Of a DNA stretch of 53,846 nt, positions 7,358 to 38,176 are shown one piece after another. Each line of letters starts with the position of its first letter. Position 1 is the first letter of the stretch. The notes under the pieces were generated by a model. It was given only the letters and a program-made list of their open reading frames with translations, had not been told where the DNA came from and did not search any database. Source of the DNA: Escherichia phage mEp554. The stretch lies in the sequence record PP180005; one strand, given 5' to 3'. A program made the position numbers and the translations under genes.

Positions 7358-7459
7358 TTATGGATTGACTAGAAGGAACAAACCGCCGAACAAAGCGACG
7401 TTAACAGCGATTGCAGCAGCGATGGCAAAAGCCAGGGCGAAAACGTGTTTACCGTCCAT
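7358..7459 (-). CDS. 33-aa hydrophobic single-TM micro-ORF (MDGKHVFALAFAIAAAIAVNVALFGGLFLLVNP)
   Basis: Below the ORF-track cutoff. SD GAGAGGA 8 nt upstream. Same strand as flanking genes. Confidence 0.45.
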   Translation of the reverse strand: MDGKHVFALAFAIAAAIAVNVALFGGLFLLVNP

Positions 7460-24618: not shown

Positions 24619-24819
24619 ATGTTCGACAGAATACGGGAGGCGTGTGCGTATGTGACTGGTGCAGTAACCGCTTTTTTCGGTGCTATAACCATCAATGACG
24701 TCGCTGTTTTCGTTGGTATCTTATCAACCATAGGCACATTTGCCGTTAACTATTACTTTAAATCACAGGAGAACAAGCGAGCGCAAGAGGAACACGACGC
24801 GCGAATGGGGAATAAGTAA
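24619..24819 (+). CDS. Holin (class II / pinholin-like, 2 TM)
   Basis: 66 aa from ATG 24619 (SD GGAGG). Two TM segments and a charged C-terminus. Directly precedes a SAR endolysin. Confidence 0.75.
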   Translation: MFDRIREACAYVTGAVTAFFGAITINDVAVFVGILSTIGTFAVNYYFKSQENKRAQEEHDARMGNK

Positions 24820-25311
24820 ATGATTAGCCAATCGCTGAAAAACAAGATTGTTGCTGCGGCGGCTGGTGGTGCAATCGCTATTGCGGCGGTGATGATTAAG
24901 CCATTAGAGGGCGTGGAATACGATCCATATCGTGATGTTGTTGGCGTATGGACTGTTTGCTACGGTAACACCGGAAAAGACATCATGCTTGGGAAGACTT
25001 ACACGCAATCAGAATGCGATGCTTTGCTGAACAAAGATCTACACAAAACCGCAAAAGCGATTGACCCATATATCAAAGTCGAAATATCAGATTTTACCCG
25101 CGCTGCACTTTATTCCTTCGCCTATAACGTAGGCGCAACCAACTTCAAAACATCAACCTTATTAAAGCTACTCAATGACGGCAAGAAATCGGAAGCGTGC
25201 GCACAGCTTAAACGCTGGGTATACGCTGGCGGTAGGAAGTGGCAAGGCCTGGTAAACCGCCGCGATGTTGAATATGCCGTTTGCGAATGGGGGGAAACGT
25301 GGACAAGGTGA
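24820..25311 (+). CDS. SAR endolysin, GH24 lysozyme family
   Basis: 163 aa. N-terminal weakly hydrophobic SAR ([17 protein letters not shown]). Catalytic E-X8-D-X5-T ([16 protein letters not shown]). Confidence 0.9.
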
Positions 25312-25769
25312 AGGCGTTAATTATCGCCGCTGTTGTTTGCATTATTGCCAGCCTTACCGCCGTAACGTGCCATTACCAGAGTGAGGCGACAAGGTTACAG
25401 GAAGAGTTAACGACCACGCAAGGCGCACTGAAAACAGCAAGTAACACTATTCAGCAGATGAAGGAGCGAAACGCCGAACTGTCAAAACTTGATAAGAGGT
25501 ATCACGATGAGATTAAAGCTATCAGATCTGACATTGCCGATCTGCGCACTGGTATTGATAACGGCACTATCAGGCTGCGCGTCAACGCAATACCCGTGCG
25601 AGTGTCCGACCCCGCAGGAACCGCCAGCGCCATTAATGGAGCCTCCTGTAGACTCACTCCCGACGCTGAATCGGCTTATCTATCCCTCAGAGAACAACTA
25701 AAAGAGAAAGACGCGAAGATAACCGCGCTTCAGGGATACATCAAAACGCAGTGCTTACGCAAAGAATAA
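25308..25769 (+). CDS. i-spanin (Rz-like)
   Basis: GTG 25308 overlaps the endolysin stop (the ORF is open from 25281, so the start is uncertain). N-terminal TM then coiled coil. Confidence 0.75.
25507..25701 (+). CDS. o-spanin (Rz1-like lipoprotein) embedded in the +1 frame of Rz
   Basis: ATG 25507 (SD GAGGT). Lipobox LSGC. Pro-rich mature part. Confidence 0.75.
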   Translation: MRLKLSDLTLPICALVLITALSGCASTQYPCECPTPQEPPAPLMEPPVDSLPTLNRLIYPSENN

Positions 25770-26048
25770 CAGTGCGTTGACGTGTCGCCGTTTCTGCCAG
25801 CCAGCCATAACCGGGCCAATCCTTCCCGCGAGCGACGGCAGAATAGTCAAAAACACGTAATGCCGGATCAACAGTCCCATTAACAGGTCAGGCGCTACCT
25901 GGGTAGAAGAAAGCGCCATCCACCAATTTTATAAAATTCTGTAAACGGTACTCACACAGCGCCGTTTTCAGTGTTTTATAGCTGTTTTCACTCCCTGCGG
26001 TGTCCAGTTTTGCGGGGGTTATATTTTTCAGGATAGAGGAATATTCTG

Positions 26049-26606
26049 ATGGCTAAGGCTAAAGGCATTAAGTTGCCTCAATTCAAAGTCCCGCTCTTTG
26101 AGCATACAACTGTTTTCTTTTGCCCGACCCGCGAGATGTTCTATGAGTTTTGCGAAAAGGCAGGGATCCCAATCGAACCTGATTTCGAACTGGCAGGAGG
26201 ATTAACGCTTACTTGCACTGGTGAGAAAGGCGGTAACTTCTACGTGATCGCAGTATTCGACAATGAGTTAGGAACGCTGGTACATGAAGCGGCCCATACT
26301 ACATTTCACGTTTTAAGTGATGTAGGCGTCGTGGCGACCACTGATCCCAGCCATCCGGCAAACGAGACTTATGCTTACATGGTAGGCCGTATCTTTGATG
26401 CTTTCTTCCCCATCCTGGCAGAATCAAATGAAGCACAGGTGGCAGCAATGCAGGCAGAAGAAATAACCGAACGTCTTAGCGCACAAGAGGCAAGGGATAT
26501 TGCTAATGAGGCAAAAGACAAGCAAAAGCCAGCTAAGAAAGGCAAACGTAAGCCTAAAGCAAAAGAGGCGCTTGTGCCGCGTGTTATGAGCTTTAAACGG
26601 GGGTGA
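26049..26606 (+). CDS. HExxH-motif protein (putative small zinc metallopeptidase) with a Lys-rich tail
   Basis: 185 aa. SD GAGGA. LVHEAAHTTFH, then ETYAY 25 residues later. C-terminal KDKQKPAKKGKRKPKAK. Confidence 0.6.
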   Translation: MAKAKGIKLPQFKVPLFEHTTVFFCPTREMFYEFCEKAGIPIEPDFELAGGLTLTCTGEKGGNFYVIAVFDNELGTLVHEAAHTTFHVLSDVGVVATTDPSHPANETYAYMVGRIFDAFFPILAESNEAQVAAMQAEEITERLSAQEARDIANEAKDKQKPAKKGKRKPKAKEALVPRVMSFKRG

Positions 26607-26608
26607 TT

Positions 26609-26704
26609 ATGGGTATCCTTCTGGTATGTGTATTTATTGCTTTAGTTGCGATGGAGGTATTGCTCCCCATTTGGGCGGCGACCTGGATGATGCAAGATGA
26701 TTGA
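26609..26704 (+). CDS. Micro-ORF 1 of 10: MGILLVCVFIALVAMEVLLPIWAATWMMQDD (31 aa, TM)
   Basis: SD GGGGGTGA. Starts 2 nt after the HExxH gene stop. Confidence 0.55.
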   Translation: MGILLVCVFIALVAMEVLLPIWAATWMMQDD

Positions 26705-26771
26705 CCCGCTCATTATCCTTTCTGCCTGCGTCGCTGTATGGCTGGCGATCATGATATTCATTGAAAGCTAA
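26697..26771 (+). CDS. Micro-ORF 2: MIDPLIILSACVAVWLAIMIFIES (24 aa, TM)
   Basis: 8-nt overlap with micro-ORF 1. Weak SD. Confidence 0.45.
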   Translation: MIDPLIILSACVAVWLAIMIFIES

Positions 26772-26781
26772 AGGCGTTCAC

Positions 26782-26856
26782 ATGAATATTTACGATCTAA
26801 TCTGGTGGTTGTTGGTCGCCGTCATTATCTATTTCTGGTGGAAGAATGTTGTATAG
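26782..26856 (+). CDS. Micro-ORF 3: MNIYDLIWWLLVAVIIYFWWKNVV (24 aa, TM)
   Basis: SD AAAGG 7 nt upstream. Confidence 0.5.
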   Translation: MNIYDLIWWLLVAVIIYFWWKNVV

Positions 26857-26864
26857 GTGACGGC

Positions 26865-26963
26865 ATGGATATATTCGAATTACTGGCGATTATGTTCGGA
26901 ATGATGTTAAGCATTGTCGCCATAATTATCATCATCGGCCTTGTTATGGGTAGCATCAAATGA
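26865..26963 (+). CDS. Micro-ORF 4: MDIFELLAIMFGMMLSIVAIIIIIGLVMGSIK (32 aa, TM)
   Basis: SD GGTGA 4 nt upstream. Confidence 0.55.
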   Translation: MDIFELLAIMFGMMLSIVAIIIIIGLVMGSIK

Positions 26964-27040
26964 ACGCATACGAAATGCTATTGCTGGTGGCTGTTATTAC
27001 AGTTATCGCCGTAGATTTTTATCGAGGGTTGAAAAGATGA
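26960..27040 (+). CDS. Micro-ORF 5: MNAYEMLLLVAVITVIAVDFYRGLKR (26 aa, TM)
   Basis: ATGA overlap with micro-ORF 4. Confidence 0.5.
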   Translation: MNAYEMLLLVAVITVIAVDFYRGLKR

Positions 27041-27108
27041 GAGAAGCAGACTTCTTTTGCATGATTATAGTGATCGTCATCGTTGCCGTGCTTTTAAGCG
27101 TTAACTGA
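27037..27108 (+). CDS. Micro-ORF 6: MREADFFCMIIVIVIVAVLLSVN (23 aa, TM)
   Basis: ATGA overlap with micro-ORF 5. GAGGG 8 nt upstream. Confidence 0.5.
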   Translation: MREADFFCMIIVIVIVAVLLSVN

Positions 27109-27125
27109 ATCGCAGGAGGTTAAAA

Positions 27126-27194
27126 ATGAAATTGCTTGATTTCTTTTTCCTGATTGTTGCGATTGTTCTTACCATGACCGCGCTGACTCAATAG
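27126..27194 (+). CDS. Micro-ORF 7: MKLLDFFFLIVAIVLTMTALTQ (22 aa, TM)
   Basis: Consensus SD AGGAGG 6 nt upstream. Confidence 0.6.
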   Translation: MKLLDFFFLIVAIVLTMTALTQ

Positions 27195-27202
27195 GTGAAT
27201 AT

Positions 27203-27277
27203 ATGGAAACTATCGAAGCAGTATTATTCGTGTTCATCGCTGCGGTTGTTATTGTTGGGTTTATTATCAATGTCTGA
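27203..27277 (+). CDS. Micro-ORF 8: METIEAVLFVFIAAVVIVGFIINV (24 aa, TM)
   Basis: SD GGTGA 4 nt upstream. Confidence 0.55.
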   Translation: METIEAVLFVFIAAVVIVGFIINV

Positions 27278-27338
27278 CGTCGATTTCTTAATCATAGCTA
27301 TAAGTTCGCTGTTAGTCGTTATCGTTTTCTTCGCATAA
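27270..27338 (+). CDS. Micro-ORF 9: MSDVDFLIIAISSLLVVIVFFA (22 aa, TM)
   Basis: 8-nt overlap with micro-ORF 8. Confidence 0.45.
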   Translation: MSDVDFLIIAISSLLVVIVFFA

Positions 27339-27348
27339 AGGGTAAGCA

Positions 27349-27432
27349 ATGAAAGAGCTATTCGACTGGTTGGAAGTATTAACATACTGCGCAAGTTTTG
27401 TGGCTTGCGTATATATCATCAACAAATATTAA
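27349..27432 (+). CDS. Micro-ORF 10: MKELFDWLEVLTYCASFVACVYIINKY (27 aa, TM)
   Basis: SD AAGGGTAAG. Ends 10 nt before terS. Confidence 0.5.
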   Translation: MKELFDWLEVLTYCASFVACVYIINKY

Positions 27433-27442
27433 GAGGTGAAAT

Positions 27443-27928
27443 ATGGCCCGCACGAAAAAGGCAAAGGCTGAAGACAAAAAGCCAGCAGCCAAAAAGACGG
27501 GCCGTCCACATGGCTATTCAGAAGAAAAGGCATTGGAGATCTGCGAGCTTGTGTCGGACGGCGAAAGTATTAACAAGATTTCGAAGATGCCTGGTATGCC
27601 TGCACGTTCAACAATCCTCAAGTGGTTCAGAGATGTGCCGGAGTTTTCGGACATGTATATGCGCGCGAAGGAGATCGGATTCGAGGTGTTAGCTGATGAG
27701 ATCATCGACCTTGCTGACGCGCCAGAGAACATCAAAAAGGAAGAACTGAACAGACACCATTTGATGATTGAAACTCGTAAATGGCTATTAGCAAAACTGC
27801 AACCGCGTAAGTATGGCGAGCGCGTCACACAGGAGATCGTCGGCAACAAGGAAGAGGCGCCCGTCCAGGTGGAAGTCACGAAAGAAGAGATCGCCCGCAT
27901 CGTCCAGGAAGTAGAAGACGAGGTGTGA
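27443..27928 (+). CDS. terS: Terminase small subunit
   Basis: 161 aa. SD GAGGTG. HTH region and the RKWLLAKLQPRKYGER motif typical of this small-terminase family. Precedes the large subunit. Confidence 0.8.
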   Translation: MARTKKAKAEDKKPAAKKTGRPHGYSEEKALEICELVSDGESINKISKMPGMPARSTILKWFRDVPEFSDMYMRAKEIGFEVLADEIIDLADAPENIKKEELNRHHLMIETRKWLLAKLQPRKYGERVTQEIVGNKEEAPVQVEVTKEEIARIVQEVEDEV

Positions 27929-38011: not shown

Positions 38012-38098
38012 TTATTTCTTGTTTTTAAGTGCTTTCAACATTTTTTCGATGAAATCGGCATAACGCTCATGCTCGTTTGGTCGGTAGTAGTTTTTCAT
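38012..38098 (-). CDS. 28-aa micro-ORF (MKNYYRPNEHERYADFIEKMLKALKNKK)
   Basis: SD GAGGA 6 nt upstream. Confidence 0.4.
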   Translation of the reverse strand: MKNYYRPNEHERYADFIEKMLKALKNKK

Positions 38099-38176
38099 TT
38101 TCTTATCCTCTTTTGCTTCCTCCGGTTAATCCGGCCTTCTAAATCCCTTTACTCTATCCCTTTCCTTTAGCCTCTT

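Follow-up and report, generated by a model that had tools for sequence, protein, structure and literature searches.

Escherichia phage mEp554 carries, between the gene for an HExxH-motif protein and the small terminase subunit gene terS, an array of ten ATG-initiated micro-open reading frames (micro-ORFs) of 22–32 amino acids (aa) on the plus strand (positions 26609–27432 of the window, that is, the whole stretch of 53,846 nucleotides (nt) of sequence record PP180005 that was analysed). Substitution patterns in related loci show the micro-ORFs to be real protein-coding genes under purifying selection at the protein level, and we infer translation, membrane insertion and late timing of their products. 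The reading that we prefer, with a probability of about 0.55, is that the region is an accessory array of coding single-helix microproteins that would be made late, reside in the inner membrane and act through helix-helix contacts, with the phage's own lysis clock as a slightly favoured target.

The ten ORFs stand as the initial annotation had drawn them from the letters alone, in coordinates, strand, ATG starts and peptides. The first begins 2 nt after the stop of the HExxH gene (26606) and the last ends 10 nt before the ATG of terS (27443), as had been claimed. The two 8-nt overlaps (ORF1/2 and ORF8/9), the two ATGA overlaps (ORF4/5 and ORF5/6) and all quoted Shine-Dalgarno (SD) strings were likewise located in the sequence, and seven of the ten peptides indeed bear D or E at position 5. 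Moreover, the array is co-oriented with the late genes, and its description as a set of single-transmembrane (TM), translationally coupled micro-genes was borne out. As also proposed, no ORF of at least 60 aa lies within 26607–27404, where the longest frames reach 55–56 aa with TTG starts; no other stretch of the 53.8-kb genome lacks an ORF of at least 75 aa over so great a length.

The initial annotation had considered whether T-rich composition alone might explain the hydrophobicity of the peptides. Instead, hydrophobicity is frame-specific: mean hydropathy is 0.8–2.3 in the called frames, whereas the other frames of the plus strand range from about −1.5 to +1.1, and T makes up 0.22, 0.59 and 0.28 of codon positions 1, 2 and 3, respectively. 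On the plus strand, 92% of the gap is taken up by ten hydrophobic ATG-ORFs of at least 20 aa, and there are none on the minus strand, whereas 2,000 dinucleotide-preserving shuffles yielded a mean of 0.65 and a maximum of three such ORFs. GC content at third codon positions (GC3) is 0.52 in the array vs 0.46–0.60 in the flanking genes, with an overall GC content of 0.40 and a second-position value (GC2) of 0.25. The low GC content of the array is thus due to the hydrophobic T bias at second positions, and the region is neither foreign AT-rich DNA nor merely T-rich.

For comparison, we assembled 53 loci anchored on terS, comprising mEp554, six GenBank phages and 46 IMG/VR contigs; the region is also carried by 35 complete E. 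coli genomes. In all 53 loci, the HExxH gene is followed by a gap of 318–1154 nt and then by terS, and in every one of them the gap is filled with plus-strand micro-ORFs (3–13 per locus), which fall into about 15 sequence families of near-fixed lengths (22, 23, 24, 26, 27, 31 and 32 aa). The ratio of non-synonymous to synonymous polymorphism (pN/pS) was 0.09–0.52 in 13 families and 0.69 in a fourteenth, represented by three sequences. In 14 of 14 families, the called frame had the lowest pN/pS of the three frames, the other frames giving 0.51–2.83, and variable sites numbered 127, 81 and 214 at codon positions 1, 2 and 3. Cassette copies were also sought by DNA similarity, which avoids ascertainment through ORF calling. 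Among the 457 copies found in this way, the frame was intact in 451 (442 of canonical length, eight longer and one with a GTG start); the six disrupted copies, with one frameshift and five start-codon losses, represent three independent events. Broken frames over conserved nucleotides, which according to the initial annotation would have pointed to an RNA or DNA element, are thus the opposite of what the relatives display, namely kept frames and coding-like substitution. Signals for translation concur: of the 436 starts, 80% have an SD of at least 4 nt ahead of them, compared with 24% among the 858 other ATGs within these gaps, most genes have an SD of their own, and neighbouring genes either overlap by 4 or 8 nt or are separated by 2–17 nt, with peaks of inter-ORF spacing at −4, −8, +8 and +11 nt.

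These observations leave very little room for the notion that the region is not genic, whether a DNA or RNA element (a packaging site or a structured RNA) or junk with ORFs arising by chance, which we regard as scarcely credible. The location just upstream of terS, where some phages have cos/pac-associated sites, would suit such an element. However, shuffled sequences never approach the observed pattern, searches for Rfam families, inverted repeats and tandem repeats found none in the array region, and whole-cassette insertions and deletions (indels) are tolerated, which a fixed cis-acting site would not allow; codon-position periodicity, frame-specific purifying selection and the 451 intact frames argue in the same direction.

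The ten cassettes of mEp554, all on the plus strand, belong to families designated by letters; in what follows, presence is counted among the 53 loci and intactness among the copies detected by DNA similarity. Cassette A3 (26609..26704; 31 aa, MGILLVCVFIALVAMEVLLPIWAATWMMQDD) is a divergent allele of the first-slot family (A1, MFTFLL), and its SD, GGGGGTGA, lies within the final codons of the HExxH gene. It is the least-sampled cassette, found in two loci, and has a GenBank entry as a hypothetical protein; the sole difference from mEp010 is synonymous in the A3 frame and non-synonymous in the overlapping frame. Cassette C (26697..26771; 24 aa, MIDPLIILSACVAVWLAIMIFIES) overlaps A3 by 8 nt and is present in 49 loci, with a pN/pS of 0.29, 50 of 50 copies intact and P4, C11, W15 and E23 conserved. 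Cassette D (26782..26856; 24 aa, MNIYDLIWWLLVAVIIYFWWKNVV) occurs in 35 loci with a pN/pS of 0.52, and 42 of its 44 copies are intact, the others having a 1-nt frameshift (locus L041) and a start codon changed from ATG to ATA (L010). With TAGGTGA as its SD, cassette E (26865..26963; 32 aa, MDIFELLAIMFGMMLSIVAIIIIIGLVMGSIK) was found in 23 loci (pN/pS 0.12) and corresponds to a GenBank hypothetical protein of mEp554; the 5' junction (stop-SD-ATG) that it has in common with cassette I is the only DNA repeat in the array.

Cassette F (26960..27040; 26 aa, MNAYEMLLLVAVITVIAVDFYRGLKR), joined to E by an ATGA overlap, is present in 50 loci (pN/pS 0.24; 51 of 51 copies intact), and cassette G (27037..27108; 23 aa, MREADFFCMIIVIVIVAVLLSVN), joined to F in the same manner, in 18 (pN/pS 0.24). 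Cassette H (27126..27194; 22 aa, MKLLDFFFLIVAIVLTMTALTQ) is preceded by the SD AGGAGG and occurs in 49 loci, with a pN/pS of 0.13 and all 49 copies intact. Cassette I (27203..27277; 24 aa, METIEAVLFVFIAAVVIVGFIINV), again with TAGGTGA, has an SD of at least 5 nt in 100% of copies and a pN/pS of 0.33 over 37 loci. It is overlapped by 8 nt by cassette J (27270..27338; 22 aa, MSDVDFLIIAISSLLVVIVFFA), which is found in 33 loci, never without I (Fisher p = 3e-10), and has a pN/pS of 0.29; its start codon has changed from ATG to ACG in four related loci (L022, L024, L026 and L034). Cassette M (27349..27432; 27 aa, MKELFDWLEVLTYCASFVACVYIINKY) always occupies the last position, with the SD of terS following its stop; it is present in 53 of 53 loci, has the lowest pN/pS of all families (0.09) and is intact in 52 of 52 copies.

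Across the 141 unique peptides of the comparison set, the uncharged core has a median length of 18 residues, and the cores are uniformly apolar and non-amphipathic. Maximum 15-residue hydropathy is 2.2–3.6. The N-terminal tails (3–9 residues) are negative in 116 peptides, neutral in 25 and positive in none, while the C-terminal tails (0–11 residues) are positive in 70, neutral in 52 and negative in 19. Given the positive-inside rule, this charge asymmetry predicts single-pass insertion with the N-terminus out and the C-terminus in. The Pf3 coat protein, which has a similar design, is inserted with the help of YidC and the proton-motive force (pmf); by analogy, the peptides would enter the inner membrane in an N-out/C-in orientation assisted by YidC and the pmf. 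The first-slot families A1–A3 lack an N-terminal tail and have an acidic C-terminal end, so that they may sit inverted.

The four residues named above for cassette C are invariant within that family, as are G7 and G11 in A1 and G8 and G11 in B. Such invariant, specific residues suggest specific packing rather than generic greasiness, and together with GxxxG-type motifs they point to specific partners rather than a bulk hydrophobic load; the peptides would thus act through TM helix-helix contacts. They also combine the attributes of small regulatory membrane proteins, being single TM helices of fewer than 50 aa under purifying selection. From the acidic residue at position 5, the initial annotation had suggested one paralogous family. 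This idea stands in part: two subgroups, G/H/K (z 6–10) and F paired with each of D, E and L (z about 4.3–4.6), are related, but similarity is not significant across all families.

We considered whether selection might act on translation itself, rather than on its products. Continuous translation of the HExxH–terS spacer could be favoured because it averts Rho-dependent polarity or messenger RNA decay and sets terS translation through coupling, the peptides being by-products and possibly young de novo genes. The tight packing and coupling up to 10 nt before terS, with the terS SD directly after the last stop, would fit such a relay, as would the C-poor composition of the region; in addition, T-rich sequence is reported to give TM-like peptides readily (PMC7005711). 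A relay would, however, leave the amino acids unconstrained, yet pN/pS values are 0.09–0.5 and P, W, C, G and E residues are invariant. The asymmetry of negative N- and positive C-terminal tails is consistent over the 141 peptides, the sister phage introduced below simply does without the spacer, and arrays of 318–1154 nt would couple very differently. We therefore consider this explanation unlikely.

Slightly less probable still is a bulk membrane load, in which redundant, toxin-like peptides, akin to type I toxins or PSM-type peptides, would depolarise or permeabilise the membrane by their summed dose, without a specific partner. The peptides do resemble the Ibs, Ldr, TisB and ShoB class of toxins in size and hydrophobicity, cassette number varies from 3 to 13, and depolarisation triggers the lysis system. 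Nevertheless, each family is conserved on its own and keeps both its length and its place in the array, which a pure dose effect would not maintain; moreover, no NCBIfam toxin match was found, antisense and antitoxin signals were not above chance, and the cores are not amphipathic.

While the individual families are conserved, their combination is not. The order of cassettes is strictly collinear (A, B, C, D, E, F, G, H, I, J, K, L, M), and the 53 loci present about 38 architectures, a count that is approximate owing to a few doubtful automatic labels, such as 20-aa "MDAYLF" ORFs labelled A1. An alignment of mEp554, mEp021, MagusPhagus and a minimal three-cassette array revealed indels bounded by start codons at both ends, implying recombination between similar stop-SD-ATG-acidic-N-terminus junctions. 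Turnover is rapid: when two loci have terS 5' ends that are at least 99% identical, they share the same array in only 43% of cases. The pattern points to evolution of the array by loss and exchange of whole cassettes through junction recombination, with order preserved. In locus L042 (3230–3412), a natural in-frame fusion of B and C encodes 60 aa with two hydrophobic segments; multi-pass membrane proteins might arise from microproteins by such fusions.

Other genes have entered the same interval. In mEp013 (L004, 2070–2555), the HExxH gene is shortened and its end is overlapped by an inserted gene for a 161-aa HNH endonuclease, which precedes the array. An ORF for a helical-looking, acidic and soluble product is situated between the last cassette region and terS in L053 (3826–3990, 54 aa) and L026 (3706–3990, inside a 94-aa ORF), with the consensus NEELKIADEI.KALD.AENN.TIYLSE.EVEKMM.EFKL.F..D. 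Judging from this content, the slot between the HExxH gene and terS is an insertion hot-spot.

The HExxH gene (26049..26606, plus strand; 185 aa, gp49 of mEp021), which forms the upstream flank, encodes a protein with invariant H79-E80-x-x-H83 and N105-E106-T-Y motifs and a K-rich disordered tail. Its N-terminal domain defines a family of proteins of about 120 aa with 145 representative clusters, for which no Pfam family was found; one relative is labelled "PolyVal metallopeptidase". Family members occur immediately or closely upstream of two types of small terminase, Sf6-type and Terminase_2 (mEp554 26049–26606; L122 4001–4522; L125 4001–4387), the Terminase_2 case being a more distantly related member located two genes upstream of the small-subunit gene. 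The protein may be a minimal zincin associated with packaging.

The sister phage L122 has orthologues of the holin (49% identity), the endolysin (67%), the HExxH protein (54%) and terS (59%), as well as of TerL and the portal protein. In this phage, however, the HExxH stop lies 3 nt before terS, and neither an array nor TM micro-ORFs nearby were found. TM micro-ORFs are also absent from L121, a contig that carries a distant HExxH-family member and a 726-nt uncalled gap. Peptide-anchored scans of IMG/VR recovered only this phage group, plus one extra contig (L098), and a terS-anchored scan of one genome per species gave no relative beyond the phage collections. The array-less sister phage marks the array as a clade-specific accessory, and, on this distribution, it was inserted or expanded in the mEpimmI clade only.

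The initial annotation had also entertained that the peptides are precursors processed by the adjacent HExxH protein, and a bacteriocin-like set of secreted peptides, or one of ribosomally synthesized and post-translationally modified peptides (RiPPs), matured by a metalloprotease would bear a resemblance to the tandem short ORFs. This proposal fared poorly, and we judge it very improbable. The HExxH family stands beside terS in phages without an array (L122–L125), which indicates that its partner is the packaging module and not the peptides. In addition, the peptides are net acidic or neutral TM helices with uncharged membrane segments, without a leader/core organization, a conserved cleavage site or a Cys/Ser/Thr-rich core, and there are no modification, transporter or export genes in the neighbourhood. 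An identity as bacteriocin or RiPP precursors was likewise rejected on the conserved TM core with its acidic N-terminal tail, the lack of a GG-type site and the negative or neutral net charge.

Upstream of the HExxH gene lies a lysis cassette (24619..25769, plus strand), with genes for a class II holin (24619–24819, 66 aa, PF16080), an endolysin of the signal-anchor-release (SAR) type (24820–25311, lysozyme PF00959), Rz (25281–25769, PF03245) and Rz1, embedded in Rz (about 25489–25701, PF06085), all on the plus strand. The endolysin, which GenBank labels "lysozyme R" in these phages, aligned with the phage 21 lysozyme (3HDE) and RrrD with E values of about 1e-63, including the Ala/Gly-rich N-terminal SAR segment. 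The lysis genes thus resemble a pinholin/SAR-endolysin pair. A hairpin that looks like a terminator, with a U-rich tail (25930..25980, plus strand; fold z = −3.1), separates Rz/Rz1 from the HExxH gene and coincides with a terminator annotated at the equivalent position in relatives' records, so that expression of the HExxH gene, the array and the terminase genes would need read-through, antitermination or an unrecognised promoter. Within the array, no promoters or terminators above the shuffle expectation were detected by consensus scans, which are weak evidence. Downstream, terS (27443..27928, plus strand) is of the Sf6 type (PF20901, E = 3e-36) and is followed by TerL. Strictly, the array stands at the head of the packaging operon, outside the lysis cassette.

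Membrane depolarisation and the way in which small TM helices behave gate the release of SAR endolysins. In the scheme that we tentatively favour, the peptides would be made late, along with the packaging genes, and would bear on the phage's own depolarisation-gated lysis clock, consisting of the class II (pinholin-like) holin and the SAR endolysin; cassette content would then be a quickly evolvable knob on lysis timing. The phage 21/RrrD-type endolysin and the PF16080 holin are consistent with this link, and Mu releasin and LysM provide precedents. The lysis clock as the specific target nevertheless remains a tentative choice, well short of even odds, as several observations weigh against it. 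The array-less sister phage relies on the same lysis system, so that the array is dispensable for lysis; the terminator-like hairpin and the HExxH gene lie between the array and the lysis cassette; the 73-aa cytoplasmic domain of Mu releasin is absent from the peptides (PMC9239132); many distinct, conserved families suit several partners better than a single dosage knob; and hypervariability of gene content is more usual among conflict genes.

Indeed, a role in conflict, either superinfection exclusion by blocking inner-membrane steps in the entry of incoming DNA or neutralisation of membrane-embedded abortive-infection effectors or sensors that act late in infection, is almost as likely as action on the lysis clock. 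The hypervariable presence and absence of cassettes, with fast turnover relative to the flanks, would be expected of such genes, as would confinement of the module to one clade, its absence from the sister phage and its residence in a hot-spot that also received the HNH gene and the acidic ORF; moreover, small inner-membrane exclusion proteins are well known. On the other hand, the array has no independent promoter or terminator and is coupled inside a late transcription unit, so that expression in the prophage state is not expected, and selection is purifying (pN/pS 0.09–0.5) rather than diversifying. Searches of PHROGs and NCBIfam gave no homology to exclusion or anti-defence proteins, PADLOC not having been run.

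In PHROGs and NCBIfam, the ten peptides had no significant match (best PHROGs E value 0.1); Pfam was applied to the flanking proteins only, not to the peptides. A collection of about 15 billion predicted proteins lacks eight of the ten, and the exact products of two micro-ORFs are GenBank proteins of mEp554 and mEp010, the latter being the nearest other record to mEp554 (94.6% identity). In relatives' GenBank records, only some cassettes are called, as "hypothetical protein", or they are merged into wrong, longer frames with non-ATG starts. For example, the PHANOTATE-based models of the mEp010 record (L001, 2262–2465, 2443–2610 and 2697–2840) cross cassette boundaries in the wrong frame, mEp010_80 combining cassette D out of frame with E, and in the mEp021 record the gap is unannotated. 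The paper describing these phages (the mEpimmI paper) does not mention the array. The initial annotation had not recognised a described module of this kind, and none turned up in the literature searched, including an Enterobacteriaceae microproteome preprint and the Mu releasin paper, a search whose coverage left out most subscription journals.

By type, the peptides fall in with small microproteins that cross the membrane once and with accessory membrane proteins of phages; the novelty is the architecture, with up to 13 distinct, individually conserved, translationally chained genes of 22–32 codons that are re-assorted as cassettes. The KdpF, AcrZ, MgtS, CydX/CydH and PmrR class comprises proteins of 20–50 residues with one TM helix, which bind a larger membrane protein by helix-helix contacts. 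Like the KdpF/AcrZ/MgtS class, the peptides have a single TM helix and very short tails and are often missed by annotation, but no sequence similarity to that class was found; KdpF/AcrZ-like proteins are single host genes beside, or regulating, a known partner, whereas here 3–13 genes are chained in a phage operon and subject to cassette turnover. Type I toxins (Ibs/Sib, Ldr/Rdl, Hok/Sok, TisB) are hydrophobic inner-membrane peptides of 18–50 residues with their own promoter, an antisense RNA antitoxin and dispersed copies. The peptides are similarly small and hydrophobic, with several paralogous copies per genome, but form one co-directional, translationally coupled chain, in which promoter and antisense signals were not above chance and neither an Rfam small RNA nor an NCBIfam toxin was matched. 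The PSM-alpha 1–4 genes of S. aureus and the aureocin A70 genes AurA–D are sets of about four tandem 20–31-codon genes, each with its own ribosome-binding site, whose leaderless products are amphipathic, cationic or secreted, in Gram-positive bacteria. They parallel the array in tandem layout, codon length and individual ribosome-binding sites, but the peptides studied here have apolar TM segments and acidic N-terminal tails, are coliphage-borne and number up to 13 per array.

HK97 gp15, T4 Imm and P22 SieA are small inner-membrane exclusion proteins, and morons carry their own promoter and terminator and often have a deviant composition. Like morons, the array is accessory and variably present, lies at the junction of the lysis and packaging modules and encodes predicted inner-membrane products; unlike them, it has no promoter or terminator above chance and a GC3 equal to that of the flanks, and its products are several-fold smaller. 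An identity of the peptides as holins or pinholins was rejected, since PHROGs and NCBIfam gave no such match, their 22–32 aa compare with 60–145 aa in holins, which add a charged cytoplasmic C-terminal domain to at least one TM segment, and a PF16080 holin is already present.

Mu releasin (gp25, DUF2730) is a late, N-out/C-in single-pass protein of 99 aa with few periplasmic residues and an anionic cytoplasmic domain; it is encoded within five genes downstream of the SAR endolysin and modulates endolysin release (PMC9239132). The peptides, for which charge asymmetry predicts an N-out/C-in single pass, are likewise encoded a few genes downstream of a SAR endolysin but differ in size (22–32 aa), in coming from several genes instead of one, and in having C-terminal tails of 0–11 residues and no soluble domain. 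No releasin signature matched the peptides in PHROGs or NCBIfam, PF10805 having been checked by Pfam on the flanks only. A second precedent is LysM, a phage peptide of 37 residues, likewise little longer than one TM helix, which is reported to wedge between helices of host MurJ (PMC12506998). Single-gene lysis (Sgl) proteins of ssRNA and ssDNA phages, however, are the sole lysis gene of tiny phages, whereas here a full holin/endolysin/spanin set is present and the peptides are shorter, multiple and acidic at the N-terminus.

More speculatively, at odds well below even though not negligible, the array could represent a kind of phage module not recognised before, namely a recombining library of single-helix microproteins in which each wedges into a different membrane protein. 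If so, candidate partners would be the phage's own pinholin and SAR endolysin, host transport and defence proteins and the entry machinery of rival phages, and junction shuffling would allow rapid re-assortment of the repertoire, as a membrane-level counterpart of variable anti-defence islands. As a corollary, cassettes would have been born de novo and by duplication from the T-rich HExxH–terS spacer, offering a dated, tractable case of microprotein gene birth in a cultured coliphage.

Genes of 22–32 codons fall under the length cut-offs of standard gene callers, and the ten genes described here (up to 13 in relatives) add about 10% to the gene count of the phage group, which is reported to be common in human-gut E. 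coli (PMC11893012). The array displays microprotein families expanding, contracting and even fusing via recombination at start-codon junctions. As the phages are cultured on E. coli K-12 and include natural variants with 5 (mEp021), 10 (mEp554) and 12 (MagusPhagus) cassettes, direct tests of a role in lysis timing, exclusion or anti-defence at the end of infection are feasible, and other phage genomes may be searched for the pattern of at least three coupled ORFs of at most 35 codons encoding TM helices. In mEp554 itself, two more lone intergenic ATG-ORFs encode hydrophobic peptides of 33 aa, one at 7358–7459 on the minus strand with a 4-nt SD and one at 38069–38170 on the plus strand with no SD.

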